Both the position numbers and the translations under genes were made by a program. A stretch of 64,000 nt of DNA. Source: an uncultured Planctomycetota bacterium. Lineage in GTDB: Bacteria; Planctomycetota; Planctomycetia; Pirellulales; PNKZ01. The notes beneath the pieces are model-generated. The model did not search any database and was not told the DNA's origin. It saw only the letters and a list, made by a program, of their open reading frames with translations. The stretch is taken from NCBI GenBank assembly GCA_963708675.1, contig CAVPTO010000003.1, positions 4,740,719 through 4,804,718 of the forward strand, read 5' to 3'. Each line of letters begins with the position of its first letter. Within the stretch, counting starts at the first letter, position 1. Below, in pieces: positions 5,704-64,000 of the stretch.

Positions 5704-5716
5704 GCGGTGTTTAGCC

Positions 5717-5732: not shown

Positions 5733-5796
5733 GTTCGGCGGGGCGGCTACATTTGGTTCCCTCGAACTCTAGCACGATCGCCCGTAAAATGAAGGC

Positions 5797-16248: not shown

Positions 16249-16301
16249 CGAACGACACTCTGAATATCAATAAACCAAAGTCAGCAACCAAAAACGCCCC
16301 C

Positions 16302-16724: not shown

Positions 16725-16725
16725 A
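16669..16725 (+). repeat. 57-bp direct repeat, copy 1 (functional 3' end of yjbQ)
   Basis: 54 of 57 nt are identical to 17601-17657, counted by eye. Encodes ...[17 protein letters not shown]. Confidence 0.95.
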
Positions 16726-16760: not shown

Positions 16761-17558
16761 GTGAAATCATTCCATGTGCCGATTTTCAGTAGCCAAATTC
16801 TGCGGATGCCTCATGATGCCGAGGAGGCTCAATACGTATTCGATAGTTTTTGGAGCAAGGGACCAGTAGGCGAACGCCCATACTTGTACGCAGATATTAT
16901 CTTGGACTCCGGAATCTACCTGAGGCATGTCGAGTTTGACGGCAGCGGGATTGGGGTTCGCTGTGGCGTTGGCACAAGTCAGCGGGTGGCTGATTGTCCC
17001 GAACTGTTCGGAAGCCGTGCTATTCGTTGGTGTCCGATACGGAGTTTTTCTCATGGGCAGCGATACGACTGGGCTACTTCGTCGGACCGCATGCTATTTG
17101 CCAAAGAGCAAGGGCAGCAAATCCGGCTCTGCGGGTTGCCTATGCCGCCGGCTCTCGTGTCGTTGATCGAAGCTGGAATGTGGAACCATCCCGGTGACGA
17201 TGTGATCAAAGAGATAATCCCCTTTCTGAAAGAGCCGGTGGATTTCTTATCCGTAGATTCGATGGAATCCGAGTCGTCGGGTCATTTGGCAGACTTCCCC
17301 GATACTTCGTCATTGTTTCATGAAATGAGAGGTGGCGGTTCTGTCGTAGTCCCTGACCTGCCGTGGCGTGATGTGAACAAGTCGTTTTTCATCGCCGTGA
17401 ATCGCATTCCCGGAGACGACATCGGCATAGCACTCGACTTTCGAACTGGTGACGAATCTGATCCAAGCGTAATTGCGAGCGATTGGAGCGATGGAACGTG
17501 CAAATGGAGGATGGTATCCGACTCGTTGTCGAGCTTCCTTCAGCAAATTGGCCTTTAG
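16761..17558 (+). CDS. SUKH/SMI1-KNR4-like protein on a low-GC insertion
   Basis: GTG start. The C-terminal half resembles the SUKH immunity fold: LPMPPALVSLIEAG ... IAVNRIPGDDIGIALDFRTGDESDPSVIASDW ... WRMVSDSLSSFLQQIGL. A 100-nt sample has 46 G+C, against 62 in the flanking yjbQ. Confidence 0.55.
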   Translation: MKSFHVPIFSSQILRMPHDAEEAQYVFDSFWSKGPVGERPYLYADIILDSGIYLRHVEFDGSGIGVRCGVGTSQRVADCPELFGSRAIRWCPIRSFSHGQRYDWATSSDRMLFAKEQGQQIRLCGLPMPPALVSLIEAGMWNHPGDDVIKEIIPFLKEPVDFLSVDSMESESSGHLADFPDTSSLFHEMRGGGSVVVPDLPWRDVNKSFFIAVNRIPGDDIGIALDFRTGDESDPSVIASDWSDGTCKWRMVSDSLSSFLQQIGL

Positions 17559-17600: not shown

Positions 17601-17657
17601 GCGAGTTCGACGGCCGCCGCGCCAAGCGCGTGCTGATTAAGGTGATCGGCGAGTGAA
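17601..17657 (+). repeat. 57-bp direct repeat, copy 2 (relic yjbQ 3' end that carries the permease start)
   Basis: Would encode ...[17 protein letters not shown]. Its GAGTGAA contains the GTG start (17653) of the permease overlapping the relic TGA. Confidence 0.95.
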
Positions 17658-19017: not shown

Positions 19018-19091
19018 GCGCTCGGCGCGGGTCTCCAGACCCCGCCGCTCAGCGCCGATATCGGCGGGGTCTGGAGACCCGCGCCGAGCGC
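19018..19091. repeat. Nested-palindrome intergenic element between convergent genes (30-nt perfect arms)
   Basis: gcgctcggcgcgggtctccagaccccgccg (19018-19047) and its reverse complement (19062-19091). Each arm holds gggtct/agaccc. Starts 4 nt after the permease stop, so it is a likely bidirectional terminator. Confidence 0.85.
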
Positions 19092-42721: not shown

Positions 42722-43924
42722 TCAGCGTTGGAAGATCGGCAGATAATTGTTCGGCATCTGCAACACGATGCAGGCCATCGCCGTGCCGTACTCGGGGCAG
42801 ATTGAATCCATCCACGAGCCGTCGTCACGCTGCCGGACGATCAGTTCATCGCGAATGGCTGGATACCATCGCACCCAATGATCGCCGCCGGCATGCCACA
42901 TCGCTTGGACCGCGTAGTAGTGGCCATAGAAGTAATGGCTCTCGCGATTGAACACGCCGCCGCGCGGAATGCTTTCCATGAGATACTTCAGCCCCTTGTC
43001 GATCTCGGGGCCTTCGTAGATGCCGGCGCTGTACAACGCGACGACGCCGGCGGCCGAACGCGGGAACGCGCTTTGACCACCTTGGATCATGTACATAAAG
43101 CCGCCGTCGGCGTTCTGGCTTCGCTTAACGTACTGGACACACTTATCAATCGTGTCGTGCGAGACAAAGATGCCTGCATTGCGTGCCGCCCGAAGCGCCA
43201 TGACCTGGCAGATGGTAACCGAGATATCGGCATCGCGGCGCACGGGCTGATACCGCCATCCGCCGTCGGCGTTCTGCGTGTTTTCGATCAGCGCGACGGC
43301 CTTGGCCAACTTCTCGCGGACGTCGGTGCGTTGCGTCATGCCGTAAGCTTCCGCCAGGAACAGCGTCGCGAAGCCGTGCCCGTACATCGGCCCGTGACTG
43401 CCCGAGCCTGCGACGTTGATGAATCCACTTTCTTGCGTGTTCTCGAGAATGTATTCGACGCAGCGTTCGACGTTCGCCCCGTAAGGCCCGCGACCCGGCG
43501 TGCTGCCGCCTGCCATGAACGCCATACCCGCCAGTCCACACACGGCCACGTCGCGCGCGAACCCGCCGCTACCGAACGAACCGTCGTCGTGCTGTTGCGC
43601 TGCCAGCAACGTCAACCCGCGACCACTCGCGCGATCGGCTTCGGGAGTGACGAGTTCGACCGCCGTGCGCTCGGGGTCGTCCTGCACCGCGGCGGGCGCC
43701 GGAGCGACGGTGAGTAATACGGCGATAAATAGGGGCGCGGCGCCAACCCAACCCTTCTCCCTTCGGGAGAAGGTGGCCGAAGGCCGGATGAGGGAGCGCC
43801 GCCCAGGTGAAGGTTCACAACAAGCGCAATGTCGCACGCGATTGAACCCGCCCTCACCCGGCTCGCTGCGCTCGCCACCCTCTCCCGAAGGGAGAGGGGT
43901 TCCTATTGTGACGACTCCGTTCAC
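42722..43924 (-). CDS. Prenyltransferase/squalene-oxidase-repeat (alpha/alpha-toroid) protein; start codon unresolved
   Basis: Repeated QxxDGSF/GGW motifs (QQHDDGSFG, NADGGWRY, NADGGFMY, RDDGSWM). The signal-like AAPLFIAVLLTVAPAPAAV has no canonical start just upstream. In-frame GTGs exist only at 43924 (GTGA-coupled) and 43837, both within or beyond repeat copy B. Confidence 0.75.
   Translation of the reverse strand: MNGVVTIGTPLPSGEGGERSEPGEGGFNRVRHCACCEPSPGRRSLIRPSATFSRREKGWVGAAPLFIAVLLTVAPAPAAVQDDPERTAVELVTPEADRASGRGLTLLAAQQHDDGSFGSGGFARDVAVCGLAGMAFMAGGSTPGRGPYGANVERCVEYILENTQESGFINVAGSGSHGPMYGHGFATLFLAEAYGMTQRTDVREKLAKAVALIENTQNADGGWRYQPVRRDADISVTICQVMALRAARNAGIFVSHDTIDKCVQYVKRSQNADGGFMYMIQGGQSAFPRSAAGVVALYSAGIYEGPEIDKGLKYLMESIPRGGVFNRESHYFYGHYYAVQAMWHAGGDHWVRWYPAIRDELIVRQRDDGSWMDSICPEYGTAMACIVLQMPNNYLPIFQR
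43750..43901. repeat. Composite nested-palindrome element, copy B
   Basis: Order of parts: cttctccc-ttc-gggagaag, gtggccgaaggccggatgaggg, a central region, cccgccctcaccc, then ccctctccc-gaa-gggagagggg. The left inner arm is degenerate. Confidence 0.9.
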
Positions 43925-44790
43925 GGGGCGCTCCCGTTGCGTTGCTTCTCAGCCAGCGCCTTGAAGTATTCCTCGATGAGCAACTCGTACTTGGGAATGA
44001 ACTTCTCCACCGACGATTGCATCATCTCTTGTCGCAGCCGCGGAGGCAGCTCGCCCCAAATGTCCTTGAGCATTTCGCGCATCCGGGCCATGTCGGGCTT
44101 CTCGGTTTCGCGCTTCACGACCTTGCCCGAGCTGTCACGCGCCGGATCGGATGACGGTTTTTCGCGTGCCGGGCCGCCGGGCTTCATCTGCGGTTGCGAC
44201 TGCGGACGTTGATCGGCCGTTTTTTGTTGCTGCTGTTTCTGATTCTTCGAAGAAGACGACGAGGACGACTGTTGTTGCTGCTGTTGTTGTTCGAGCTCAT
44301 CGATCAACGCTTCGAGCTTGCGGACGATTTGCGTTTGCAGATCCTGCGTCTTGGCGTCGCCTTTGGCCTCGCGCATGAGTCGTTCCGCCTCGCGCATTTT
44401 GCGGTTGAGCGAGACGAGCGGATTGTCACCATCGGCTTCCGCCGTGTCGCTGGCTGCCGGACCGCTTTCGTCGCCAAGTCCCTTGAGCAACTCGTCGTCG
44501 AGCGAATCACGGGTCGCCGGCTTGGCGGGTTCGGTGGTCGTCGAATTCTTTTCAGTCGATTTCGTTTCAGCAGGTTTCGTTTCGCTCGACTTCTTCGCCG
44601 GCGATGCTTCTTTGGGGCCCTTCGTCGCGGGTTTGGCAGGCTTGATCTCGTCGGCCGGATCAGGACCGAGTCCTTGCAGCAGTTCGTCATCAAGCGACGG
44701 TTGCTTCGCGGGCGCCGGATCGGCCATCGCCGTCACGCCATGCATCAAAACGATCACAAAGGCATAGAATGTGATGTGTTTTGCCATCAT
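43921..44790 (-). CDS. Secreted low-complexity (Lys/Pro/Glu, poly-Gln/Ser) protein with conserved-looking C-terminal helical domain
   Basis: ATGA overlap with the upstream gene. Signal peptide ITFYAFVIVLMHGVTAMA. QQQQQQSSSSSSSKNQKQQQQK tract. C-terminal DIWGELPPRLRQEMMQSSVEKFIPKYELLIEEYF. Confidence 0.65.
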   Translation of the reverse strand: MMAKHITFYAFVIVLMHGVTAMADPAPAKQPSLDDELLQGLGPDPADEIKPAKPATKGPKEASPAKKSSETKPAETKSTEKNSTTTEPAKPATRDSLDDELLKGLGDESGPAASDTAEADGDNPLVSLNRKMREAERLMREAKGDAKTQDLQTQIVRKLEALIDELEQQQQQQQSSSSSSSKNQKQQQQKTADQRPQSQPQMKPGGPAREKPSSDPARDSSGKVVKRETEKPDMARMREMLKDIWGELPPRLRQEMMQSSVEKFIPKYELLIEEYFKALAEKQRNGSAP

Positions 44791-47700
44791 TCCGGCTCCG
44801 GAAGCTTGGTGTCGCGACTACGCCCGGCATCGGGGTCGAGCAGCTTCTTGAACTCCGCGTCGTCCTTACGCGAGTCGTCCTTCGGCTTGCTGAGTTCCAA
44901 CAACAAGTCGGCCAGGTCGGCTTGCTGCCCGCTCAAGTCAGCGTATTCCTCTTGTTCAGCGGGCGTCAAGTCGCGGCCCTTCGTCCCATCGAACAACTGG
45001 CGCACGCGATCGTTGATCGACTCTTGCAAGAGCTTGATCAAGCGTAGCTCAGCGACACCGGCCGAGGGTTCGTTTTGTCCTTGCTCGCCTCCCTGCCCAC
45101 CTTGGTCGCCGCCGGCCTGCTGTTTCTGTTCCTTCTGCTTCTTGTTGCCGCGTTCGAAGGCCTTGAGCATCTGTGCGAGGCGTTCGATCGCTTGCTGTTG
45201 GCGACTCTGTGTGATGTTGCCGGTGTCGCGATCGTCAAGGCGCTCGGCGGCCTGAGTCATCGTGCGCGCGGCGGCTTTGAGCGCTAGCTCGAACGCTCCG
45301 CCAGCCTTCGACAACTTGCCCGCGAGCGCCTCGACATCACCCGACAAACTACGCTGACCTTGCGCCACATCGCGAAGGCTGAGCAACTGCGCACGTCGCA
45401 GACCGCCGGTGTCGCGAGCGAGTTGATCGTAGTGCTTCGTCTCGGTGAGCAGCTTTTCTTGTTGTTGACGAAGGCCGTTCAGCGTGTCTTCCATCCGCGC
45501 CAACTGCTCTTGAGCCAGGTCGGCTTCGGCTTTCTTGCGTTGCTCGGCAAGCTGTTGCTGTGCGTCTTGCAGGTCCTGCTCCGCGGCTTCGGCCTGTTCG
45601 GCGGCTCCGGCGGCGTCGCCTTGTTCGCCGGCTTCGGCCGCAGAACCCGCCTTGCCACCTGCGCGGTCGGCAGTGCGACCGGCTTGATCGGCCTGCAATC
45701 GTTTCAGCGAGCGGGCGAATCGCTGGATTTCTTCTTCGAGTTGCTTCTGCTGCTTCGTCAGGCGTTCGAGCTCGCGTTTCTTCTCCGCGTCGTCGGGCTT
45801 CTTGGCAACGTCCTGTAACTTCTTCTTGAGCCCCTCTTGTTCCTTCTGCAACTTGTCGAGTTGCTGTTCGGCATCGCGAAGTTTCTTTACCAGTCGCCCG
45901 AGTTCGCGCTCACGTTTGTTCGACAAGATGTCGAGCAACTCGTCGAGCGTGCGCATCGACTGTTGCTGTGCTTTCGCGGCTTGGCCAAGCTGATTCTGTT
46001 CGAGCTCGCGACCGGCTTCACGCATCTGACCGCCGAGCGTTTTCTCGCGCGCGGCGTGCAATGCGTCGGCGATCGTGTCGGCCGCCAAGGGGTCGGTCTC
46101 GCGCAGCTCTTTGGCCATCTCCTCCATGCGCTGCTGGATTTTCTCGAAGTTGCGGGCCAAGTCGGACTGCCGCGAGCCGAGCTTCCGCAGATCGGCCTGC
46201 TGCTGCGGCTTCAGATCTTTCACATCTTGCGTGAGTGTGCGATTGCCCTGCTCGGCCGTGTCGCGCGCGAGTTCTTCTTGGTCGCGGCGTAGCTGTCCGA
46301 TGTCGCGATGAAAGCGGCGATAGTTGTCCCACTCGGTCAGGCTGCTCAGCAACTGTTCGAGCGATTGAATCGTGGCGTCCTGATGCTTGCCGGCCTCGGC
46401 CAACGACGGCGCGGCATCCGGTCCGGCGGGCTTCTCCGTTGCTTGCTGGTCGGGAGTCGATGGTCCTTCGACAGTCGAGGGCTTTTCGGGAGCGCTCTTC
46501 GCCGCATCTTGAGCGGTCTTGAGCGCCGCGGTGAGATCGCGCGCGACGACGGGCAAATGTTCACGGCCGACGCGTTCGAGCTCGTCCATCACCTCGGTCA
46601 GGCGGCGCTCGACGTCGCTGCTGTCGACTTTGTTGTTCTTGAGCTCGCTGAGAAGCGAAGAAATCTGCGCGGGCACCCCTTCGTTGCGATGTCCGAGCCC
46701 GCGCTCGACTTGCCGCTGCGTCAGCTCAGCCTGCTGCAGATGATCGATATCTTGCTTGCTCAACTTGCCAACTTGGTCGAGCTGGATTTCGAGGCCCGAT
46801 ACTTGGGCCCGCGATTGTTGTTCGAGCTTGAGTAGCCGCGACAGCTCGGTGAGGATCGCGCCTTGCCTTTCGGTCAGGCGATCCTGAAGTTCGTCGCGCG
46901 TAATGATCGACAGACGCCGCGGATGGCTCTTCGTTTCTACCGGTCGATAGTCGGCGACCAACGCGTACGCGGTGATTCGTGCGCCGGGTTTCAGGCCCAG
47001 CGGCGCCAGATCCCAGCGATGCTCGAGTGTACGCGATTCACCGCGACCGTTTTCGATGCCCTCGGCCGGCGGCTCGACGACTTCGGGACCTTGATACAGC
47101 GGCAGCTTCTGCTCGGGCTGCTCCGATTCGTCGCTGCGAGAGAAATTCAGATCGACGCGCTGGATGGCGAGGTCATCTTTCGCGAGCACTCGCACGGGCA
47201 CCACGGCGTCGGCAGTCACGTAAATGTCGGCGGCCGGTTCCTCGAACGACACGGTCGGGGCACGATCTTCGACGGCACGCACCTCGTAGCGAATGTCACG
47301 CGGGCCATGAAAACCTTCGCGATCGACCAGATCGAACGTGAAGAATCCGGATTTGCGAACGACGAAGCCCGGCTCCGCATCGGCGGAAATCGTGAACGCC
47401 AGTCCGTCGGCAGCAACGGTCGCGGCGATGTCGGGCTCGCCTTCGATGTGCAGCACGGCCTCGGCAATCGGCTTGTTCGTGCGTCCAGCCAAAGCGACGC
47501 GCGTGCCGATGATCGCACGCACGTGAGCTTCGCTGGCCGTGGGAGGCCAACCCGTGTAGGCCGGGTAGTGCAGCGTCGCTTCGAGCTGCTCGACCACCGG
47601 CGGCTCGACGACTTCCAAGTCGTACCAAGGCATCGAGTCGTCGTCGCCGCCTTCGGCACGGTACTTGAACGGACGGCTGACGCCTTCAATGTTCGCGACC

Positions 47701-48455
47701 ATCACGCCACGCGCGGGACGCATCGGCTCGACACGCTCGGGGGTCGAGGCGGGATCGCCTTCGTAGCGAAAATGAATGCGGACTTCCGCGGGTAAGCGAG
47801 CGCCGTTGACGTCGGACACTTCGACTTCAAACGGTTCACCGACCGCGAGACGACTATCGGGGTTGGCGATGACGAGGTTGTTCATCTTCGGCCAGGCGGC
47901 ATTGCCCAACGGAGCGGACAACCGAAGCAGCGCGGTGGCAAATGCCTGCGGCGACCAGAGCGCAGCGGCGACGAATACCGCGATGGCGGCGACCGCCGCG
48001 ACGACCGCACGCACCGTGGGACGAACGTCGACAACTTCGCTAACATCGACGTGGCCGATCTCCGCGGCGGTTTGATGAATCACCTCGCGACGCAGCATCG
48101 CCGAACCGGCTTCCGGATCGTCCGAGCGTTGGTGGAGAAACTGCACGGTGCTGGCCAGCTGATCGGAAAACTCGGGGAAGCGTTCTTCAACGCGGAGCGC
48201 CAAGGTGACGTCGCTGAAACGCGTCACGATCGCCGGCCACAGCAGTCGGTACGCCAGCAGCGCGCCGGTGGTGACGACGGCCAGCGTGCACATGATGCGG
48301 ATACCGCGATCTTCGAAATGCACCAAGAAATCGAGCGTCGACAACACGGCAACGACCGTCAGCACCGCCGCCAACATCCACGCCAGCGCGTGCAGCACCA
48401 GCAGGCCGCGAACGCGGCGACGCACGGTGTGGAGTTGTCGGAGTAACGGGTGCAT
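44787..48455 (-). CDS. Giant (1222-aa) membrane-anchored coiled-coil protein (DUF4175-like)
   Basis: Start re-set to MHPLLRQLHTVRRRVRG (ATG 48455); the upstream track extension lies in repeat copy C. Two N-terminal TM segments are followed by a beta-rich region and ~600 aa of Glu/Gln/Leu/Lys/Arg heptad-like sequence. Confidence 0.75.
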   Translation of the reverse strand: MHPLLRQLHTVRRRVRGLLVLHALAWMLAAVLTVVAVLSTLDFLVHFEDRGIRIMCTLAVVTTGALLAYRLLWPAIVTRFSDVTLALRVEERFPEFSDQLASTVQFLHQRSDDPEAGSAMLRREVIHQTAAEIGHVDVSEVVDVRPTVRAVVAAVAAIAVFVAAALWSPQAFATALLRLSAPLGNAAWPKMNNLVIANPDSRLAVGEPFEVEVSDVNGARLPAEVRIHFRYEGDPASTPERVEPMRPARGVMVANIEGVSRPFKYRAEGGDDDSMPWYDLEVVEPPVVEQLEATLHYPAYTGWPPTASEAHVRAIIGTRVALAGRTNKPIAEAVLHIEGEPDIAATVAADGLAFTISADAEPGFVVRKSGFFTFDLVDREGFHGPRDIRYEVRAVEDRAPTVSFEEPAADIYVTADAVVPVRVLAKDDLAIQRVDLNFSRSDESEQPEQKLPLYQGPEVVEPPAEGIENGRGESRTLEHRWDLAPLGLKPGARITAYALVADYRPVETKSHPRRLSIITRDELQDRLTERQGAILTELSRLLKLEQQSRAQVSGLEIQLDQVGKLSKQDIDHLQQAELTQRQVERGLGHRNEGVPAQISSLLSELKNNKVDSSDVERRLTEVMDELERVGREHLPVVARDLTAALKTAQDAAKSAPEKPSTVEGPSTPDQQATEKPAGPDAAPSLAEAGKHQDATIQSLEQLLSSLTEWDNYRRFHRDIGQLRRDQEELARDTAEQGNRTLTQDVKDLKPQQQADLRKLGSRQSDLARNFEKIQQRMEEMAKELRETDPLAADTIADALHAAREKTLGGQMREAGRELEQNQLGQAAKAQQQSMRTLDELLDILSNKRERELGRLVKKLRDAEQQLDKLQKEQEGLKKKLQDVAKKPDDAEKKRELERLTKQQKQLEEEIQRFARSLKRLQADQAGRTADRAGGKAGSAAEAGEQGDAAGAAEQAEAAEQDLQDAQQQLAEQRKKAEADLAQEQLARMEDTLNGLRQQQEKLLTETKHYDQLARDTGGLRRAQLLSLRDVAQGQRSLSGDVEALAGKLSKAGGAFELALKAAARTMTQAAERLDDRDTGNITQSRQQQAIERLAQMLKAFERGNKKQKEQKQQAGGDQGGQGGEQGQNEPSAGVAELRLIKLLQESINDRVRQLFDGTKGRDLTPAEQEEYADLSGQQADLADLLLELSKPKDDSRKDDAEFKKLLDPDAGRSRDTKLPEPE

Positions 48456-48483
48456 GAATTGACTCGACGGTCTTCGATATCCA

Positions 48484-48615
48484 AACCCTTCTCCCTTTGG
48501 GAGAAGGTGCCGCGAAGCGGCGGATGAGGGCGGGTTGAATCGGTAGGCGCTTACCAATTTAACCCGCCCTCACCCGGCGACTCCGTCGCCACCCTCTCCC
48601 AAAGGGAGAGGGGTT
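48484..48615. repeat. Composite nested-palindrome element, copy C
   Basis: Order of parts: cttctccc-ttt-gggagaag, ggatgagggcgggtt, a loop, aacccgccctcaccc, then ccctctccc-aaa-gggagagggg. Fills the spacer between the stop at 48626 and the start at 48455. Confidence 0.9.
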
Positions 48616-48625
48616 CATGTTTGTC

Positions 48626-50995
48626 TTACAACATCCCCTTCATTTTTCGCAAAACCCATTCGCCGCTCAACACACAGACGAGCAGCATTAGCACCGACCA
48701 ATGATTCCACAGCACTTTCGGCGGCAACGATTCGATCGGCACCTCCTGCCCTTGCGGCAGGTCGTTGGCGAGGCGATCGACGTCGGCCATCGTGTAGGCG
48801 TGTCCTTTGCTCTCGTCGGCGGCTCGCTTCAACTCGGCCAAATCCATTTGCACATGCTCGAACTCGCCGGGCGGCGGAACGACGCGGAAATCGGCGGACG
48901 CGGCCTTTTCTTCGAGCGCCGGCGATGTGATCCAAGCATGGTATTTGCCGTCGGCTGGGCGGCTGAGCAATCCCTCGAACACGCCGCGATGTGACGGATT
49001 GCGGGCGAGCGTGATGCGGCGATTCGGGTGCCCTTCGTGTTCGATCATCACGACGACGCCTTCGTCGTCGGTCGGCGCGAGGCGATCGTCGAGAAAGCGC
49101 ACTCGCATGCGCACCGACTCGCCACGTCGGTATTCGCGACGATCGACCGAAAGCTCGGCCGTGCGTTCCTTGCCGAGCAGCTTCGAACGCGCGAGATAGC
49201 GAAGCGTTTGGACCCAGTAGCGCGCGAAGTACACATCGCCCACACGCCATCGCCATCGCCATGTTTCGTCGACATTGTGCAGCAGCACCTTGCCAGCGCC
49301 GACGTATTGCAAGGCGATGACCGGCAACGTGCGGTCGGCCAAGCGAGCTTCGGCCAGCACGCGAGCGGCGGGCTTGAGTGCCGGCGCTTCGAACAACCAA
49401 AACAGCCCCGGCAACTTCTGCCAGATCTCGATCGTCTCCTCAGGCGTGTTGCCCATTTGCATGTTTGGCATGGCGAGGCCCAACTCGGTCGGCTCGATCG
49501 AGAACGGGCGGTCGGTGGTGATGCCGTTGTCCGGACTGCTGCCGGCCGTGAAGTCGATCGGAATCAGATTCGAGAGCGGCGTATCGCGATAGGCCATTGG
49601 CGTGAAGTGTGGGCCGGCGACGAACACCAATCCGCCCCCCTTCTGCGTGACGAAGGCGTTGAGGTTGTCGATCGCCGAGACGTTGAAGTACGTCGGATCG
49701 ACGTCGCCGAAAATGATGACGTCGTACTCGAACAACTCGTCGCGGCGCACAGGGAACACACGCAGCGCCGTGTTGTCGGTTTCCGCGTAATCGAGGTCGG
49801 CCTCTTGCAGCACGGTGCGTAGCGAGACGGTGCTGTCGCGCGCGAGCATCTGCTTGAGATAGCGGAATTCGTAGTTGGGATACAACTGCACCAACAGCAC
49901 GCGGATTTGCTCCTTGCGGACCGTGACGACGCGGTGCTGAGCGTTGTTGTCGGCGTGCACTTCCTCGGTGAGCGGGCGGACCTCGACGACGTATTCGTGT
50001 TGGCCGACCTTCGACGGTCGATACGGAATGCGAACTTTTTGCGGCTTGCCATCCGCGGCGATCGTCACGTCCGTTGCCGACAACACCTCGGGCGAATCCT
50101 TCTCGCGAAGGATCACGTGCACCGTGCGACCCGCGAGCCCCGTGGCGGTGATCTTGCATTCGAAGTTGACAAAGTCGTCGACGAACACCACTTCATCGAC
50201 GAGCAGGTCATTGACTTCGAGATCGCGGACCGGGGTTTGACTGCCGAGCGCGACGGTGAACAACGGCACGCCTTTGCGACGCGCGTAGGTGGCGGCTTCG
50301 GTGATCGGCTGGCCTTCGGTGTTGATGCCGTCGGTGAGCAGCACGAGTGCCGTGGGGGGCGTGCCGCGCAGATCGTTCAGGACGTTATGCACACCTTGAC
50401 CAAGACGGCTCGCTTGCCCCTCGGCCGTGTGCGTGCGTAGCTCGCGCTCGAGGCCGTCGAGATCGCCGCTCAACGGGCGGGCAGTGTCGGAAACGAAGTA
50501 CACCTTGAGGTTGTACTGGTCGTCGATCGAGTGCAGGAGTTTCGCCTTGTCGGCCAACAACACCGACTTGGCCTGATCGAGCCGGCTGGCGTCGGAAAGA
50601 TCGGCAGACTTGAGATGCGTGTTGACGATCTCGCGCAACTTTTCGTCGTCATAACGATCGACGATGCCCATGCTCGCCGAGTCGTCGACCATAACGATGA
50701 CATACGGCAAGCCCGTGCGCGATTGCGTGACGATGAACTGCGCGAGCATAAAGGCCACGATCGCCAGCGCCGTCAGCCGCAGAAAGATGAGCAGGCCACG
50801 TGTGAAGCTGCGCGCGCCGCCACGTTCGTGGACATAACAAACGGCGACGAGCGCGACGATGGCGACGGCAAGGATCACCGTCACCCATGCCGGCAGATAC
50901 CACGTCCCTTTCAGCGAGCGCTGAATGCCTTCGCCGGAGCCGAGCGGTTCGCTGCCAAGGAACCAGTCCACGATCGAGGAGAATGACCCGTTCAT
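48626..50995 (-). CDS. Membrane VWA-domain protein with C-terminal GATase1-like module
   Basis: Start re-set to MNGSFSSIVDW (ATG 50995, ATGA overlap). MIDAS motif VMVDDSASMG. FVTQKGGGLVFVAGP module. Terminal TM segment WSVLMLLVCVLSGEWVL. Confidence 0.8.
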   Translation of the reverse strand: MNGSFSSIVDWFLGSEPLGSGEGIQRSLKGTWYLPAWVTVILAVAIVALVAVCYVHERGGARSFTRGLLIFLRLTALAIVAFMLAQFIVTQSRTGLPYVIVMVDDSASMGIVDRYDDEKLREIVNTHLKSADLSDASRLDQAKSVLLADKAKLLHSIDDQYNLKVYFVSDTARPLSGDLDGLERELRTHTAEGQASRLGQGVHNVLNDLRGTPPTALVLLTDGINTEGQPITEAATYARRKGVPLFTVALGSQTPVRDLEVNDLLVDEVVFVDDFVNFECKITATGLAGRTVHVILREKDSPEVLSATDVTIAADGKPQKVRIPYRPSKVGQHEYVVEVRPLTEEVHADNNAQHRVVTVRKEQIRVLLVQLYPNYEFRYLKQMLARDSTVSLRTVLQEADLDYAETDNTALRVFPVRRDELFEYDVIIFGDVDPTYFNVSAIDNLNAFVTQKGGGLVFVAGPHFTPMAYRDTPLSNLIPIDFTAGSSPDNGITTDRPFSIEPTELGLAMPNMQMGNTPEETIEIWQKLPGLFWLFEAPALKPAARVLAEARLADRTLPVIALQYVGAGKVLLHNVDETWRWRWRVGDVYFARYWVQTLRYLARSKLLGKERTAELSVDRREYRRGESVRMRVRFLDDRLAPTDDEGVVVMIEHEGHPNRRITLARNPSHRGVFEGLLSRPADGKYHAWITSPALEEKAASADFRVVPPPGEFEHVQMDLAELKRAADESKGHAYTMADVDRLANDLPQGQEVPIESLPPKVLWNHWSVLMLLVCVLSGEWVLRKMKGML

Positions 50996-53178
50996 GTGGC
51001 TTTCCTTCCGAAAAAGGTCGCCATGAACGTTTCGCCGACCAGTAGCGCCATCGCTGCAACCAACAGCCAAACATGCAACCACTGTCGACGCACCACGCCT
51101 TCGATCGGCTCATCGCTCGGGTTCTGCCAATCGGTGCGATGCACGAACGTAATGCCTGCCCACACACGTTCAGCCAACTCGCCGGGGTCGAGCTTCGTCA
51201 GATCGCTCTCAGCGGGATCGACATTGACGGAGAAAAGTTCCTGTCGTCCGGCGGGCAACGTTGCCGTGTACACGCCGCTGGTCGAGGTGTCGGACAGCGA
51301 CCATGCGGTGTCGCTGCCGTCGTTGGTCATGCGAACGTTGCTGGCTTCGCCGGTCGGCAGAGCGACGCGAACCTGGCCGCCGGCGGTTTGGCCGTGCAGC
51401 GAGTCGCCGACCGCCTGGCCGACGATGGCGTTGTGCTCGACTGATTGCCCCGCGACCGACAGTTGTAACAACTCGTGAACGAGAGGCGGAAAGCTGGGCC
51501 ACAACGGCATCGCGGACCACGAGACGTCGGCGCTGGTGGCAACGAGAATCGACCGACCGCGCGCGATCGGTTCTTCGACAATCGCGGGATCGCCGTTGTC
51601 GAACGCGAGCGCTACCTTTGCCGTCGAGTCGGGCGGCACGATGAGCTTGAAGTAGCGCATGATCGGCGTCGTGAGGAGGCCGGCCTGTTCCTGGTCGCGG
51701 AAAACATTGAGCAGCGCGTGTTGATAGCCGAGCGGATTGAAATGGTACTGCCCCTGCGACGCCAACTCGCCGATGGCGGCGGGGAGCACATGGGCGCCGT
51801 CGGTGCTTTGACCGGTGAGGCGACGGTTGTAGCTGTCGGCCTGCACCTGGTCGCCGAGAAAGCAGACGATGCCGCCGCCGTGTTTGAGGAACGACGCGAG
51901 GACCGAGGCTTCGCTGGCGGTGAACTGACCGACGTTGGTGAGAAACAGGCAGTCATAACGCGTGAGGTCGGTTTCGAGTAACGCGCTTTCGGGCACGACA
52001 TCGGCGGCGACAAGTGCGCGAGTGGCGTCGTTGGTCCGCGGCGCCAGCGCGACGGCGAGATAATCGGTCGCGCCTTGGAAACCACCTTCAGGCTTGCCGC
52101 TGACGCACAAGACGCGAAGCTGATCCTTCACCGTCGCCGTGAGCCAACGGTGGTTGTCGATCGTCAGCAGATCGTTGGCCAACCGAACTTCGACGGCATG
52201 ATCGCCGGCAGTGTCGAAACGATAACCAAACGAGACGGACGCCTCGCCTTGTGGCGGCAGGTCGACAAAGTCTTGGCCGATCTTGCGGCCATCGACGAAG
52301 CATTCGACGAGCTGACGTTCGTGCGAACTGCGACCGAAGTTATGCACCTCGGCTTCGAGCGTGACATCGCGAGCCACGGTCGCAAGCGGTTCGTTCAAGG
52401 CGAGTTGCACCACGGCAAGATTTTCGCTGCCGACTTGGCCGACATCGAGCACGAGCAGTCGGGCGGCCTCGGAAAGGCGGCGGCTGCGCGTGCGGAATTC
52501 ATCGCCAGGGTCGCGTAACGATGGCGACCACGTATTGCGCGCGAGATCGGTGAGAAAGTAGACCTCGCTGCGCGTGAGACGCGGGTGTTCGCGCTCGGCC
52601 GTGGTGAGAACCTCTTCGACGACGGCGAGCGTGGCGGGCAAGTCGGCGCCGCCGTGCCACAGTTTCAGGTTCTCGATCTCTTCGAGGAAGTCGCGATGCT
52701 CGAAGGCGGGCTTGCCGACGATGACGCGCGGCGGCGACGCCATCAGCACTAACGTGAAGCCGTCGCCTTGATTGCTCTCTTCGACGATGCGAGCCGCGAT
52801 TTCCTTTGCACGATCGAAACGGCTCTTCTCCGTCGGCTTGTAGGCCATCGAGAATGAACCATCGACAACGACCACCTTGTGCGTGCGTTGGTTGCCGCCG
52901 ACGCTGAGCCCCGTTTTTTCGCAACCCGGCTCGGCCACGGCCATCACGACGAGCAGAATCGCCGCGGTGCGCATGGCCAGCAGAACCCACTGCTCGACCA
53001 TCAGGCGGCGCGAGTTCTTCTTGACGGCCGCCATCAGGTACTGCATCGCCGCCCATTGCATCTCGCGATACTTCCGCTTGCTGAGCAAGTGGATGACGAT
53101 CGGCACCCCCGCCGCCGCCGCCCAAAAGAGCATCGCGGGGTGCAGGATGAACGCGGTGATGATGGGGATGGGGAACAT
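50992..53178 (-). CDS. BatA-type aerotolerance-regulator N-terminal domain / VWA-domain membrane protein
   Basis: BatA_N-like start FILHPAMLFWAAAAGVPIVIHLLSKRK. MIDAS motif VVVDGSFSM. FLKHGGGIVCFLGD module. C-terminal TM segment. Confidence 0.85.
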   Translation of the reverse strand: MFPIPIITAFILHPAMLFWAAAAGVPIVIHLLSKRKYREMQWAAMQYLMAAVKKNSRRLMVEQWVLLAMRTAAILLVVMAVAEPGCEKTGLSVGGNQRTHKVVVVDGSFSMAYKPTEKSRFDRAKEIAARIVEESNQGDGFTLVLMASPPRVIVGKPAFEHRDFLEEIENLKLWHGGADLPATLAVVEEVLTTAEREHPRLTRSEVYFLTDLARNTWSPSLRDPGDEFRTRSRRLSEAARLLVLDVGQVGSENLAVVQLALNEPLATVARDVTLEAEVHNFGRSSHERQLVECFVDGRKIGQDFVDLPPQGEASVSFGYRFDTAGDHAVEVRLANDLLTIDNHRWLTATVKDQLRVLCVSGKPEGGFQGATDYLAVALAPRTNDATRALVAADVVPESALLETDLTRYDCLFLTNVGQFTASEASVLASFLKHGGGIVCFLGDQVQADSYNRRLTGQSTDGAHVLPAAIGELASQGQYHFNPLGYQHALLNVFRDQEQAGLLTTPIMRYFKLIVPPDSTAKVALAFDNGDPAIVEEPIARGRSILVATSADVSWSAMPLWPSFPPLVHELLQLSVAGQSVEHNAIVGQAVGDSLHGQTAGGQVRVALPTGEASNVRMTNDGSDTAWSLSDTSTSGVYTATLPAGRQELFSVNVDPAESDLTKLDPGELAERVWAGITFVHRTDWQNPSDEPIEGVVRRQWLHVWLLVAAMALLVGETFMATFFGRKAT

Positions 53179-53198
53179 GTTCGTATATGTCGACTGTC

Positions 53199-53328
53199 AA
53201 ACCCCTCTCCCTTTGGGAGTGGGTGGCGAGCAACGCGAGCCGGGTGAGGGCGGGTTATGGTGGGACGCGGCTCGCGCCACGACGCACCCTCATCCGGCCT
53301 TCGGCCACCTTCTCCCCGAGGGAGAAGG
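53199..53328. repeat. Composite nested-palindrome element, copy D
   Basis: Order of parts: cctctccc-ttt-gggagtgg, gtgagggcgggtt, a loop, ccctcatccggccttcggccacc, then ttctcccc-gag-ggagaagg. Its right half is the reverse complement of the left half of copy B. Confidence 0.9.
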
Positions 53329-53340
53329 ATGTTGTTCACG

Positions 53341-54246
53341 TCATCTGCTGGTTCTTGCCATCCTTCTTGCTAAGTACGTCGAAAGCGCGACGTCCAACGG
53401 TTGATCGGTTCGCATCTCGAAATAGTCGATGCCTTGCGTGCGGCAGCCGACGCGCACTTGTCGCTGGAATGCCTGGAACTCTTCGAGATATGCCTTGCGC
53501 AGTGAACGCGGGTCGGTGAGCACCTCGGGCAGTTGCTCGAGTCCTTTGAACATCGTGGTTTGATTGAAGGGAAACGTGATCTCGGCCGGATCGAGCACGT
53601 GAAAGAGAATCACCTCGTGCCGTCGGTGACGAAAGTGCTTGAGGCCAGCGAGCATCGAGCCGACGTCGTCGAACAAGTCGCTGAGAATCAGCACCACGCC
53701 ACGCTTCTTCAGCCGCTCGGCAAGCTCGTGAAAGATCGGACCGGTGTTCGTTTTGCTCTGCGGAACGGTCTGTTCCATCAGGTGCAGCAGTTGTTTGAGC
53801 TGCGACGGATTGCTGCTGGCGCGGACGAGGGAACGAATCTCGTTGTCGAACGTGACGAGGCCGACGCTGTCTTGCTGTTGCAGAATGAGATACGACAGCG
53901 AGGCCGCGATGCACTGCGCGTATTCGAGTTTTGAGAGCGCGACGTATTCACTCTTGTATCGCATGCTCTCGCTAGTGTCGATCAGCATGTAGCTGACGAG
54001 GTTCGTCTCTTCTTCGTACTGCTTGAGGTAGACCTTGTCGGTCTTGCCGAAGACTTTCCAGTCGACGTAGCGCAGATCGTCGCCGGGCGCGTACTCGCGG
54101 TGCTCGGCGAACTCGATCGAGAACCCTTGGAACGGGCTTTTGTGCACGCCCGAGACGTACCCTTCGACAATGCTCCGGGCACGCAGCTCGAGGCCTTGCA
54201 GGCTAGCTAACGTCTGCGGGTCTAAATATTTCTGGAAGCTTTCCAC
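53341..54246 (-). CDS. DUF58-domain protein (MoxR partner)
   Basis: Motifs GVHKSPFQGFSIEFAEHREYAPGDDLRYVDWKVFGKTDKVYLKQYEEE. Its start overlaps the MoxR 3' end by 44 nt. Confidence 0.9.
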   Translation of the reverse strand: MESFQKYLDPQTLASLQGLELRARSIVEGYVSGVHKSPFQGFSIEFAEHREYAPGDDLRYVDWKVFGKTDKVYLKQYEEETNLVSYMLIDTSESMRYKSEYVALSKLEYAQCIAASLSYLILQQQDSVGLVTFDNEIRSLVRASSNPSQLKQLLHLMEQTVPQSKTNTGPIFHELAERLKKRGVVLILSDLFDDVGSMLAGLKHFRHRRHEVILFHVLDPAEITFPFNQTTMFKGLEQLPEVLTDPRSLRKAYLEEFQAFQRQVRVGCRTQGIDYFEMRTDQPLDVALSTYLARRMARTSR

Positions 54247-55261
54247 GTGCGGGAGCCTCTTCCTCGGGAACGGGGATCACTTCGATCAGCTTCTGCACGA
54301 TCCAATCGGGCTTGATCCCTTCGGCCTCGGCGTTGAAGTTCGTCATGATGCGATGCCGCAGCACGGGATGGGCGACGGCGCGAATGTCTTCGCAGTTGGC
54401 GTAGTAGCGTCCGTGCAGCACGGCGCGAGCTTTGGCGCCCATCACCAGATACTGGCTCGCACGCGGGCCGGCGCCCCAGCTCACGTAGTCGTGAATGAAG
54501 TCTGGCACGTTCTCTTTTTCGCGGCGAGTAAGGCGAGTGAACTGCAACGCGTAGCGACTCACGTGGTCGGCCACCGGCACGCGACGCACGATGTGCTGCA
54601 GCGCCATGATCTCGTCGCCCGACAGTGATGCGGTCAGTTCGGGTCGCGTGTCGTTCGTGGTGCGCTTGACGATCGCGAGCTCTTCTTCCTCGCTGGGATA
54701 ATCGACGAACGTGTTGAACATGAACCGATCGAGCTGCGCTTCTGGGAGCGGGTATGTTCCTTCTTGCTCGATCGGGTTCTGCGTCGCCAGCACGAAGAAC
54801 GGCTCGGTCAATCGATGACGTTGCCCGCCGACGGTGACTTGCTGTTCTTGCATGGCTTCCAGCAGCGCTGCCTGCGTCTTCGGTGGCGTGCGGTTGATTT
54901 CATCGGCCAGGATCACGTTGGCGAAGATCGGCCCTCGGATGAACTTGAACGCGCGCGTGCCCGAGTTCTTGTCTTCTTGAATGACTTCGGTGCCGGTGAT
55001 GTCGGCGGGCATCAGGTCGGGCGTGAACTGGATGCGGCTAAAGTCGAGCGACAACGTCTCGGCCAGCGTGCGGATCATGAGCGTCTTGGCCAGTCCCGGC
55101 ACGCCGACGAGCAGACAGTGGCCACGCGCGAACATGGCGATCATCAGCTCTTCGACCACTTGCTGTTGGCCGATGATCACTTTCGCCAGCTCATGCGTAA
55201 TGCGGCGATACGCCTGATTCAGGCGATGGACCATCTGAACGTCGTCATCGTGCAGCATCAA
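54203..55261 (-). CDS. moxR: MoxR-family AAA+ ATPase
   Basis: Walker A GVPGLAKT and Walker B ILADEINR. Shows sensor and MoxR-specific motifs (TQNPIEQEGTYPLPEAQLDRF). Confidence 0.95.
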   Translation of the reverse strand: MMLHDDDVQMVHRLNQAYRRITHELAKVIIGQQQVVEELMIAMFARGHCLLVGVPGLAKTLMIRTLAETLSLDFSRIQFTPDLMPADITGTEVIQEDKNSGTRAFKFIRGPIFANVILADEINRTPPKTQAALLEAMQEQQVTVGGQRHRLTEPFFVLATQNPIEQEGTYPLPEAQLDRFMFNTFVDYPSEEEELAIVKRTTNDTRPELTASLSGDEIMALQHIVRRVPVADHVSRYALQFTRLTRREKENVPDFIHDYVSWGAGPRASQYLVMGAKARAVLHGRYYANCEDIRAVAHPVLRHRIMTNFNAEAEGIKPDWIVQKLIEVIPVPEEEAPARGKLPEIFRPADVS

Positions 55262-55372
55262 TCGTGTCCTCGGGTCAGGTTCGACCTTGTACGCGGATGA
55301 TTAGCCGGCTCGCTCGCGAGCCGTGTCCCACCGCCACGCGGCGACCAAGGTCGCCGGCTAAACGGGATTCTC

Positions 55373-57715
55373 TCATTTTAGACTCGCACGGGCGGCTTGG
55401 GGTTCCGGAGTTGCTTTGCCGGCGGTCGACGGTGTCTCGAATCCATAGATCGTATCGCTGGTAATCGCGAGGAAGTACCCGTCGGCCACCACGAGGTTTC
55501 CGCCGCCGGCGTTGTGGGCTCGAAGCATCTCGATCGGCGCTCGCGATTCGTCCCCCGTGTGGGCGTCGAAGACGTACACTCGCTCGCGCGTCGGCCAATA
55601 CACCTTGCCATCGGCGAGCATTCCGCGTCCAAACCCGCCTGGCTTGTCCATGGGCCACGGCAAACGCGCGGGCTTACCCGTGACGATATTGAACCACCAG
55701 ATTTTGTCGCCGGTAGCAATCAGGTTGCCGCCGCTCACACCGAGCAAATGAATGGTGTCCTCAGCGAGTGTTGTTTCCCAACGCAGCTGACCGGTGCCGG
55801 CCTCGATCGCCAGAATGCGCGGGCTATCCGACGGAGCAGCGAAGACCGTATCGTTGTCGTAAATGCACGGGTTCAAGTCGCGATAGAAGTGCGGAGGCCG
55901 TCGAGTCAGGTCGCCGCCTTGAGCGCGTGGGTAACGGCGAATCCATTTGATCCGCCCATCGCGACCATCGACGGCCGCCACGGCGCCGAGGTTCGTGTTG
56001 TAGTAAAGGACGCCGCTGTGCAGACACAGCAAGTTGTGCGTCACTTCTTCCATTTGACCTTGAGCAGGCGTCTCGGCGCTGCAGATCCATCGCTGCCAAC
56101 GCAGCTTGCCGGTCGTCGCGTCGAGGCACGCGACGTGCGCCTGCGGATGCACGTCACTGCGACGCAGCGCGACGTAAAGGTTCGGGCCATCGCAAATCGG
56201 CGATCCTTCGAAAGCCCATTTGTCGTCGAGCGGAAACGACTGCCGCGAGTCCCACACGGCGCTACCTTCGCGGGCCACGTCGAGACAGATCAAATAGCTG
56301 ATCGCGTTCGGATACCGTTGATCGTTCGGATTGCTCGTTACGGGCGAACCCATGCGAGCGTACACCTTGTTCTCGTGTACGGTCAGCGTGTGACGCGGCA
56401 CGCCGAGTCGCGAACGACCGCTGTTGTGCGACGACTGCAGATCAATATCTTCGTATTGCCACGCGGCCTGGCCCGTTTTCAGGCTGAACGCCGAGATTTC
56501 GTGCTGATTGTTGATGAGCAACAAGTCGCCGACGATCGCGGGATGGTAGCTCAGCGGCTCGTGCCGATCTTCGGCGATGCGGCGCGGATACGGGCCGGTT
56601 TCTGGCGCAGATGTTTTTGGAAGTTGAATCTTCCACTTCGGCGAGCCGATATCGATCGGGCCTCGCGCGACTTTATTGCGATCGGCAGCGCCGGCGAACG
56701 TGGGCCAGTCGCGACTTGTGCTCGCGGCGGGCCATTGCTCTCGGGACTTGAGCAATGCCGCAAGCGCATCGGCCATGTTCGTTTCGCGACCGCCGAGGCG
56801 TCCGCGTGCGTCGGGATACTGTCGAGCGAACTCGGCAAACGCGGAGAGGGCCATCGGCTCCGGCGCTTCGAGAATCGAGAGCAACACCTGTCGGGCACGG
56901 ACGTCGGCGAGCGGAATGTCGCTGCCTGGATAGGTGAGTCTCGTCGGCCCTTGTCCGTGTTCACGGAAGACACGGGCGAGGGCTTTGAGTTGGCCGTCGC
57001 TCCAGCGCTCGCCGGCGGGCAGTGGCCGTAGCACGAAGAACTGGCCGTCACGGTCGGTCGATTTCACATAATCGCGATCGAGCAAAAGGGCATCGGCGTC
57101 AGCGAGGTTCGCCGCGCCGCGAAGCTTCTGATAGTCGGCGGACGGCACGTCGAGCGGCGGTGTCTCGATCAGCCGGTCCCACCAGGTTTGTGCCGCGCCG
57201 GCATCGCCACCTTCCAGAGCGAACTCGCCGAGCGTGAGCAGCGCGTCGTCGCCTTTGCTGCTGCAGAACAGGCGATCGACAAGATCCTCCAACGGCCTCG
57301 GATCGTGTGTCGACATCGCCGCCGCGTAAAGGCTGTCGGCTTCGGGATCGACGCGCTGCCGGTAGAGAGCCAAGGCGTCGGGCGGCAGACGGCTAATGAA
57401 CAGTTGGCAGTATTCGCGGACGCCGACATATCGCCAGCGGTCGGCAGGAACCACTTTCGTCCCGGGGCTTTCCATGACTTGTCGTAACGTCTCGACCGCT
57501 TCGTCCCACTGCCCATCTTCGAGAAAGGCGCGGACTCGTTCGAGATGCTGCTTCACGGCGGCGTCGACCTCGTCGACGTGGACCGAGCCGGAGAGCTCGA
57601 AATGATTGCCGTAGAAGTTGCCGAACTGGGCGGTGGAGGTGGCGGCGATCGGCCCTAGAGCTACCAGGGTCGCGAGCAGCGGCCCGATGAGGCCGACTCG
57701 GCGCACCAAACCCAT
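55373..57715 (-). CDS. Secreted protein with helical-repeat N-domain plus PQQ-like beta-propeller
   Basis: Signal peptide LLATLVALGPIAATSTAQ. The N-terminal ~330 aa are helical and TPR-like. The C-terminal ~420 aa have repeated propeller blades (GKLRWQ, GRIKWI, GQLRWE, DGKVYWPT). Confidence 0.8.
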   Translation of the reverse strand: MGLVRRVGLIGPLLATLVALGPIAATSTAQFGNFYGNHFELSGSVHVDEVDAAVKQHLERVRAFLEDGQWDEAVETLRQVMESPGTKVVPADRWRYVGVREYCQLFISRLPPDALALYRQRVDPEADSLYAAAMSTHDPRPLEDLVDRLFCSSKGDDALLTLGEFALEGGDAGAAQTWWDRLIETPPLDVPSADYQKLRGAANLADADALLLDRDYVKSTDRDGQFFVLRPLPAGERWSDGQLKALARVFREHGQGPTRLTYPGSDIPLADVRARQVLLSILEAPEPMALSAFAEFARQYPDARGRLGGRETNMADALAALLKSREQWPAASTSRDWPTFAGAADRNKVARGPIDIGSPKWKIQLPKTSAPETGPYPRRIAEDRHEPLSYHPAIVGDLLLINNQHEISAFSLKTGQAAWQYEDIDLQSSHNSGRSRLGVPRHTLTVHENKVYARMGSPVTSNPNDQRYPNAISYLICLDVAREGSAVWDSRQSFPLDDKWAFEGSPICDGPNLYVALRRSDVHPQAHVACLDATTGKLRWQRWICSAETPAQGQMEEVTHNLLCLHSGVLYYNTNLGAVAAVDGRDGRIKWIRRYPRAQGGDLTRRPPHFYRDLNPCIYDNDTVFAAPSDSPRILAIEAGTGQLRWETTLAEDTIHLLGVSGGNLIATGDKIWWFNIVTGKPARLPWPMDKPGGFGRGMLADGKVYWPTRERVYVFDAHTGDESRAPIEMLRAHNAGGGNLVVADGYFLAITSDTIYGFETPSTAGKATPEPQAARASLK

Positions 57716-58122: not shown

Positions 58123-58249
58123 GAAGAATCACCATCATTTGCTCGGTTAGCCGCGACGCGCCAGCGGAGCGATCGGCTTCGCCTCGCGGCTAACCAACGT
58201 AATCTCGCAGCCCGTAGCAGAATGCTCTCCAATCGTACACCATGACCCG

Positions 58250-62937: not shown

Positions 62938-63008
62938 ATCGTTTCAACCAATCCGTTTAGCCGGCGAGCTTGCTCGCCGTGCCGGTGACGTGTCTCGGAA
63001 CCAGGCGA

Positions 63009-63962: not shown

Positions 63963-64000
63963 GTCACCCTGTTTAGCCGGCCCGCTTGCGGACCGTGTTG

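Follow-up and report, generated by a model that had tools for sequence, protein, structure and literature searches.

The window analysed here is a 64,000-nt stretch of DNA from an uncultured Planctomycetota bacterium (assembly GCA_963708675.1, contig CAVPTO010000003.1, positions 4,740,719 to 4,804,718), which carries a MoxR/Bat gene cluster on its minus strand (43921-55261) and four copies, A to D, of a palindromic element of about 130 bp. In the direction of transcription the region runs from a PQQ/BamB-like gene through MoxR (54203-55261), DUF58 (53341-54246), copy D, BatA-VWA (50992-53178), VWA (48626-51082), copy C, genes for a 1222-aa protein (44787-48456) and a 289-aa protein (43921-44790), and copy B to a prenyltransferase-like gene and an NPCBM gene; upstream and downstream are therefore flipped relative to window coordinates. 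The named homologues of the cluster proteins are from Pirellulales. All four copies reported in the initial annotation were recovered, with the ends of A refined to 16116-16250 (plus strand) and those of C to 48484-48616 (minus strand), alongside B at 43750-43901 (minus) and D at 53199-53328 (plus).

Copies C and D fill co-directional junctions. C begins 10 nt past the stop of the VWA gene (48626) and ends 28 nt ahead of the ATG of the 1222-aa gene (48456), and D lies between the DUF58 stop (53341) and the BatA ATG (53178), 12 nt past the one and 20 nt ahead of the other; the start codons flanking both copies are upheld by the agreement of orthologue lengths. Copy A, outside the cluster, ends 53 nt upstream of the UPF0047/yjbQ ATG (16302). 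The proposal that the element in effect constitutes the spacer holds for C and D but not for B, which lies within an open reading frame (ORF) for a prenyltransferase/SQHop-cyclase-like protein (42722-43924, minus strand), just after the point at which the GTG start of this ORF overlaps the upstream stop as GTGA (43921-43924). The frame remains open through copy B and gains about 50 codons ahead of the signal-peptide h-region, and spurious or extended ORFs with element-derived N-terminal extensions are indeed seen in the window. The ...SRREKGW... peptide encoded by copy B occupies the place of a twin-arginine-like motif in the orthologues.

Each copy is an inverted doublet of two arms of about 45 bp arranged around a short centre. 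An arm consists of a mini-hairpin, formed by a pyrimidine strand and a purine strand, then a second loop and a further purine stretch referred to below as the third strand, and it comes in two types, type 1 with CCCTCTCCC/GGGAGAGGG ... GGGTGAGGG and type 2 with CCTTCTCCC/GGGAGAAGG ... GGATGAGGG. When the copies are aligned in a common orientation, the type 1 arm reads AACCCCTCTCCC-N3-GGGAGAGGG-TGGCG..CGCC-GGGTGAGGG and is followed by the centre, beyond which the type 2 arm reads CCCTCATCC-hairpin-CACCTTCTCCC-N3-GGGAGAAGGGTT. In copy A the type 1 arm (16120-16165, plus strand) is TCCTCTCCC-TTT-GGGAGAGGG with the second-loop hairpin TGGCGGCGCAGCCGCC and the third strand GGGTGAGGG, and the type 2 arm (16202-16245, minus) is CCTTCTCCC-N3-GGGAGAAGG with the second-loop hairpin TGCCGCGAAGCGGC and the third strand GGATGAGGG. 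Copy B has its type 2 arm at 43753-43794 (plus; second loop TGGCCGAAGGCC) and its type 1 arm at 43851-43898 (minus; second loop TGGCGAGCGCAGCGAGCC), separated by a 56-nt centre. The corresponding arms of copy C are at 48487-48530 (type 2, plus) and 48567-48612 (type 1, minus), and those of copy D at 53203-53250 (type 1, plus, with a single hairpin mismatch, GGGAGTGGG) and 53287-53328 (type 2, minus). On the plus strand A and D thus point one way and B and C the other.

The shared tips that had been described for these elements are borne out by the pattern CYYCTCCC-N3-GGGAGRRG, which occurs eight times, solely at the eight element ends, against 0.14 in shuffled sequence; a half-element pattern gives seven matches in the window where 0.00 are expected. 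As had been claimed, the right half of copy D matches the left half of copy B in reverse complement (92% over 49 nt and 91% over 57 nt), and copies A and C are reverse complements of one another at 84% across 133 nt. Strong folds are predicted in both orientations, with energies of -81 to -108 kcal/mol and z-scores of -6.6 to -13.4 on either strand (copy A, -102.3 kcal/mol, z -11.9; copy C, -108.5 kcal/mol, z -13.4). The unit is not symmetric: type 1 is always joined to type 2, a polarity that the initial annotation had not remarked on.

The centres of A, C and D (16166-16201, 48531-48566 and 53251-53286) are each 36 nt long, form hairpins of the form CGGGT...ACCCG and are otherwise unrelated in sequence. 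Doublets of other taxa do not in general have such centres. Palindromic centres as a rule, which an origin by fold-back duplication would predict, were considered and rejected: across taxa the median extension amounts to 1 bp, with a median z of -0.37. Palindromic centres are confined to copies A and C of this genome and a few others, and the two arms are never of identical type.

Comparison with a close relative (L210), whose flanking sequence is about 95% identical, shows that the copies differ in their histories. Copy C is present there at 98% identity, D is present with a 10-nt internal deletion and carries the consensus CCCTCTCCC where the window arm is mutated (GGGAGTGGG), and B is missing. 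In the relative lacking B a GTGA overlap links the 283-aa gene to the 354-aa gene; the same GTGA is retained in the window, with B following in-frame. The surroundings of the B site are far more diverged than the rest of the alignment, and the filled and empty junctions cannot be aligned with each other. On these comparisons B was gained recently, D is decaying and C is the older copy.

More distant MoxR clusters, with BatA identities of 62-80%, give a similar picture. The orthologous junctions overlap or are only 14-43 nt long in L125, L126 and L127, and elsewhere unrelated palindromes fill them: L120 and L122 have a AATGACGAATG family, L124 and L120 share a GTTTAGCCGCGACGCG hairpin, and GGCGAGCCGGGAGCGTxAGCGACCGG is present in both L120 and L127. 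A doublet of the present family sits at another junction of the MoxR cluster in L126. The same junctions thus hold at least three unrelated palindromic repeat families in different Pirellulales (L120, L122, L124, L126 and L127) and are empty in other members of the order. The copies are accordingly insertions made at different times and no part of the design of the cluster.

These comparisons bear directly on the role proposed in the initial annotation, in which the elements act as RNA stabilisers, processing sites, attenuators or translational insulators, very stable stem-loops between cistrons protecting the mRNA from 3' exonucleases, guiding its processing, attenuating transcription or separating the translation of neighbouring genes, with differential expression along the cluster as the outcome. 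The strength of the folds, the position of C and D so soon after stop codons and the presence of other palindromes at the same junctions in relatives, where any hairpin could be useful, are all what such a role would lead one to expect. However, the elements themselves are not conserved at these junctions, B being absent from the close relative and D decaying, and C and D lie in opposite orientations within one transcript. No U-tract is present on the transcribed strand, terminator-like matches at B, C and D being found on the plus strand only, antisense to the cluster, and a scan of 43000-56000 for sigma-70 promoters returned none. A search with Rfam 15 at the gathering score gave no match in the window and only a tRNA in three related loci. 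This tRNA gene lies at 46-117 of a Geobacteraceae locus (L002) that carries tandem doublets. We find the regulatory claim unsupported and, with the structural evidence given below, consider it improbable.

The arms are not a family local to the MoxR cluster. A scan with the half-element pattern, using one genome per species, found the arm in at least 12 phyla among at least 119 loci listed, including Xanthomonadaceae, Geobacteraceae, Acidobacteriota, Planctomycetota, Alpha-, Beta- and Gammaproteobacteria, Actinomycetota, Patescibacteria, Ignavibacteria, Elusimicrobiota, Nitrospira, Armatimonadota, Binatia and others, so that this is no lineage-specific family of the repetitive extragenic palindromic (REP) kind. 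By sequence the arms belong instead to the BoxC/PIT/TM intrastrand triplex family of Escherichia coli (Bachellier; Hoyne and Maher 2000; Holder et al. 2015, PMC4666352), as a variant whose second loop holds a GC mini-hairpin. The E. coli motif TM_ECO, with the pattern CCCTCNCCC-N3-6-GGGNGAGGG-N3-GGGNGAGGG, forms a purine-motif intrastrand triplex in vitro, is always intergenic without strand bias, occurs in inverted doublets in which a type A motif is always paired with one of type B, and is tied to locus variability and to small structure-preserving deletions (Holder et al. 2015, PMC4666352).

The window elements share with this family the core of a 9-nt pyrimidine arm, a 3-6-nt loop, the purine arm GGGAGAGGG and the second purine strand GGGTGAGGG, as well as inverted doublets of two types, variable loci and small structure-preserving deletions. 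All eight window arms match the hairpin CCCTCNCCC-N3-6-GGGNGAGGG with at most one mismatch. With G*G:C, A*A:T and T*A:T triads and an antiparallel third strand, seven arms, among them the type 1 arm of copy A, give 9 of 9 triads and the mutated D arm gives 8 of 9. Type 1 is joined to type 2 in all four copies; A, C and D lie between genes, B lies in-frame at the 5' end of its ORF, and both orientations occur. In contrast to the 3-nt second loop of the published TM_ECO pattern (ITxF searched loops of 1-6 nt), the second loop of the variant is a GC hairpin of 11-21 nt, often of the GCGAAGC type and 12-18 nt long in the window, and because of this length the window arms fall outside the published search pattern and are a variant rather than strict TM_ECO. 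They differ further in their type 2 arms (GGGAGAAGG/GGATGAGGG), in the 36-nt hairpin centre seen in this genome and in their planctomycete host, TM_ECO having been reported from Proteobacteria. Other arm architectures were also observed, with back-to-back mini-hairpins and the third strands outside, or with one mini-hairpin and third strands on both sides (L005, L058, L064, L104, L112, L118 and L119; L030, L081 and L105).

The same E. coli sequences have been described as HPG1/HPG2, a 'G-quadruplex-hairpin-duplex switch' (Kaplan et al. 2016, PMC5100583), of the form GGGAGAGGG-TTA/CCG-GGGTGAGGG, and the type 1 arms here likewise have at least four G3 runs. In the type 2 arms, however, two of these runs are cut to GG while the triplex triads stay perfect, which weakens the case for a G-quadruplex as the conserved structure. 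The change from type 1 to type 2 involves three coordinated substitutions, C to T in the pyrimidine arm and G to A in both the purine arm and the third strand, which turn G*G:C into A*A:T triads; across the loci 171 instances are concordant with this rule and about 5 discordant. Widening the test to 620 perfect mini-hairpins from all loci, we found that each of six non-canonical purine-arm classes (GGGAGAAGG, GGGGGAGGG, GGGGGAAGG, GGGAGAGGA, GGGAGGGAG and GGGGGAGGA) has its own mirror third strand, so that seven arm variants in all keep the hairpin and third strand matched by triplex rules. A class finds its own third strand at a rate of 0.33-0.5 per strand-instance, or nearly every hairpin, compared with 0-0.07 for the canonical third strand and no more than 0.007 in shuffles. 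A stem of at least 4 bp in the second loop is present in 80% of units, with 78 distinct sequences, against 9% of shuffles, although the search pattern itself partly imposes this stem.

Given that purine-motif triplexes form in DNA and not in RNA (Holder et al. 2015, PMC4666352), the covariation suggests a constraint on single-stranded DNA and points to a DNA-level rather than an RNA-level structure as the feature conserved, which counts further against stem-loops acting in mRNA. PIT elements in E. coli, moreover, showed neither promoter nor terminator activity (Holder et al. 2015, PMC4666352, citing Maher). The matched third strands of the seven classes provide comparative evidence for a DNA triplex over a hairpin or G-quadruplex alone.

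The positions of 67 doublets from the cross-taxon loci support a preference relative to genes, as had been anticipated, although these statistics are approximate because the crude ORF caller used for them mis-called some window genes. Of the 57 doublets that could be classified, 6 are genic, where coding sequence makes up 79%. The gene pairs around doublets are co-directional in 28 cases, convergent in 16 and divergent in 7 (background 378, 123 and 107), and the median doublet begins about 20 nt past the end of the upstream gene, the distance to the next start being much more variable. This placement just behind stop codons is again compatible with an mRNA stem-loop, but orientation relative to transcription shows no preference (10:7).

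The initial annotation had likened the element to REP sequences and bacterial interspersed mosaic elements (BIMEs) or to miniature inverted-repeat transposable elements (MITEs), and it is indeed a dispersed palindromic repeat, but it departs from both classes in several respects. Like REP/BIME and REPIN-RAYT elements, these are extragenic palindromes near gene 3' ends whose doublets fold into long hairpins. REP elements proper, however, are palindromes of 20-40 bp with a GTAG-type head recognised by the RAYT transposase; the arms here begin AACCC(C/T)TCTCCC and lack GTAG, their third strand follows triplex rules, and they keep nearly the same sequence across phyla. With Correia, ERIC and Chunjie MITEs they share a size of around 100-150 bp, terminal inverted repeats, insertion polymorphism and tolerance within operons, at times in-frame in genes, and as non-coding units of less than 300 bp with terminal inverted repeats they have the size and ends of a MITE. 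They differ from these in lacking a target-site duplication and a related DDE insertion sequence, and in the highly structured nature of the arms themselves. A 2-nt direct repeat just outside the palindrome in three of the four window copies would suit a transposed element, but four copies are too few to count, and among the 67 doublets such a repeat occurs in 4, compared with 5.6 expected. Nor was a transposase found beside any arm in 199 loci, in line with the report of no mobility gene or transposase near TM_ECO (Holder et al. 2015, PMC4666352). Mobilisation as a classical MITE by a DDE transposase, or as a REPIN by a RAYT (Y1) transposase, is therefore very hard to credit.

The recurrent neighbour of the arms is instead a gene of the DUF559 family. 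In four loci retrieved by DNA pattern alone, a small ORF lies exactly between two arms (L026, Rhodoplanes; L118, Desulfuromusa, where it is frameshifted; L113, Paludisphaera; L053, Thermodesulfobacteriota), and these ORFs match DUF559 (PF04480) with E-values of 1e-33 to 1e-45; a Dyella locus (L007) retains a C-terminal DUF559 remnant adjoining an arm. Among the 120 closest homologues of the Rhodoplanes protein, 106 end in PPHPNPLPxGERE, which is the translated arm, although these are probably orthologues at a single metF-metH locus. A query without this tail was run against 1.84 billion representatives; arm-derived peptides stand on the N- or C-terminal side of the domain in 74 of the best 150, which all represent different 50%-identity clusters, compared with 0.5% in shuffles. 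Of 80 metagenomic loci picked solely by DUF559 similarity, 76 have an arm within 150 nt of the gene (background 0.023 per window), the arm being found upstream in 62 of 75, downstream in 61 of 76 and on both sides in 47 of 71. The arms face inward, as in the window doublets (upstream '+' 65:24, downstream '-' 65:23), and arms with a long second loop like those of the window flank DUF559 in L148, L199 and L201. In L128 an internally deleted DUF559 gene, reduced to its first ~17 and last ~10 codons, lies between arms beside a full copy that also lies between arms. E. coli K-12 itself has a DUF559 gene, ycjD (L129, NC_000913.3 1351162-1351828), whose end falls within a degenerate mini-hairpin; a partial duplicate of the ycjD 3' end comes next, and after it TM_ECO no. 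9 of Holder's table.

The residues E58, D60, H64 and D71 do not vary within DUF559, a Vsr-like PD-(D/E)XK nuclease family. Among the matches to its profile PDB 3HRL is followed by the homing endonuclease I-Bth0305I (PDB 3R3P), the nearest characterised relative of solved structure. With the Vsr/EDxHD homing endonucleases (I-Bth0305I; Taylor et al. 2011) it shares the fold, the E-D-H-D catalytic pattern and the character of a small, selfish-gene-like nuclease, but it is free-standing between structured repeats and not housed in introns or inteins. In this the arrangement resembles REPIN-RAYT systems, where a small nuclease or transposase gene stands between inverted copies of the repeat it supposedly serves, except that the flanking gene is a PD-(D/E)XK nuclease and not a Y1 transposase. 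In an independent survey, predicted inversion targets were enriched in DUF559 coding sequences, as expected for genes that lie between inverted repeats. Neither the third-strand covariation nor a link between DUF559 and BoxC/TM repeats was found in the searchable literature. With ends shared between the doublets and DUF559-bearing units, and with deleted intermediates, the relationship may parallel that of a MITE to its autonomous partner, although DUF559 is no known transposase.

On balance, and with modest confidence, we favour the view that the window copies are selfish BoxC/PIT/TM doublets inserted into MoxR/Bat junctions, gene-less forms of a DUF559 element whose effects on the operon are incidental. 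The family identity, the structural covariation, the insertion and decay polymorphism and the association with DUF559 are observed directly; mobilisation of the doublets by DUF559, its chemistry and its action on the arms are putative. Repeat DNA of this kind entered the junctions of this Pirellulales MoxR/Bat cluster at different times, and the doublet would most likely be the gene-less, non-autonomous form of the element, since small DUF559 genes across bacteria have these arms on both sides, likewise inverted and facing inward. A DUF559 nuclease made elsewhere in the genome could then propagate or maintain the doublets, acting on arms folded in single-stranded DNA as a hairpin plus third strand, and copies would persist where they are tolerated, typically 10-20 nt past a stop codon. 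The stable intercistronic stem-loop, and the extra codons in one gene, would be by-products rather than functions.

Several observations weigh against this proposal. No DUF559 sequence was detected in the 64-kb window by tblastn or by six-frame hmmsearch with filters off, the window centres show no trace of one, and the 36-nt hairpin centres of A, C and D are not explained by simple internal deletion. The doublets at large lack a target-site duplication, and the unrelated palindromes at the same junctions in relatives may mean that a hairpin is selected there. E. coli O157:H7 (L212), which lacks ycjD, keeps several TM_ECO-like copies. The association would, finally, fit doublets derived from DUF559 elements and DUF559 genes inserting into doublets alike. 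A simple correlation between ycjD and the repeats in E. coli was tried and failed on the O157:H7 copies, a result that decides neither for nor against the proposal; 3378 of 5426 E. coli genomes have ycjD, and elsewhere the segment is swapped for eefRABCD (38% of complete genomes).

Some of these points would sit as well with a different account, in which the repeats are hot spots of non-B DNA (triplex, G-quadruplex or cruciform) that arise and spread without an enzyme of their own, through stalled replication, template switching and recombination, and DUF559 genes are passengers or homing genes that favour doublets. The triplex formed by TM_ECO in vitro and its marking of variable E. coli loci, the locally elevated divergence around copy B, the small structure-preserving deletion in D, like those of E. 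coli, the copies in O157:H7 and the want of a target-site duplication all agree with it. It leaves unexplained, however, why 40-nt arms are nearly the same in at least 12 phyla, why they stand ordered and inverted around DUF559 and why gene-deleted intermediates exist, and in its pure G-quadruplex form it is weakened by the type 2 arms, which break G3 runs and keep the triads. We regard this account as unlikely, if less so than a role in mRNA.

A more specific form of the DUF559-element proposal is that BoxC/PIT/TM repeats are the terminal inverted repeats of a widespread selfish DUF559 element of about 0.5 kb, that the 130-bp doublets, both those of the MoxR cluster and BoxC of E. coli, are its non-autonomous derivatives, and that the nuclease recognises folded hairpin-plus-third-strand DNA. 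We put this forward tentatively, at a little short of even chances. Recognition might possibly take place at the fixed G:T mismatches that result from pairing the two arm types, and the whole would resemble the REP/RAYT partnership, with a PD-(D/E)XK nuclease and a DNA triplex as its basis.

The window contains further repeats. A second family, GTTTAGCCGGC-hairpin-GCCGTG, occurs at 5709-5735, 55299-55325, 62955-62981 and 63971-63997, and the spacer between the PQQ and MoxR genes (55262-55372) is an inverted pair of this family (TTTAGCCGGC...GCCGGCTAA); the 72% orthologue L120 has an element of this kind at the corresponding junction, which may reflect conservation. A third, TAGCCGCGACGCG.., is found at 16067-16094, adjoining copy A, and at 58148-58175 (28 nt, 96% complementary), and in relatives junctions of the MoxR cluster are filled by complete hairpins of this third family (L124, 983-1062; L120, 14560-14645). 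Perfect palindromes unrelated to the doublets lie at 19018-19091 (30-nt arms, 14-nt loop) and 7113-7201 (29-nt arms, 31-nt loop). A 57-nt direct repeat of 95% identity links the 3' end of the yjbQ ORF (16669-16725) to a site just downstream of ORF 16761-17558 (17601-17657) and may represent a duplicated gene end.

For the planctomycete genome, these results mean that the palindromes of the window are to be seen as passengers and not as operon regulators, and that annotation should mask them, because they create false N-terminal extensions and, in one gene, a real insertion of 50 codons. For the wider family, BoxC/PIT/TM repeats have stood unexplained since the 1990s, and the link to DUF559 offers a testable candidate enzyme for a repeat family without a known means of spread. 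In turn, the association with the arms gives a lead on a very common nuclease family of unknown function, which includes YcjD of E. coli.

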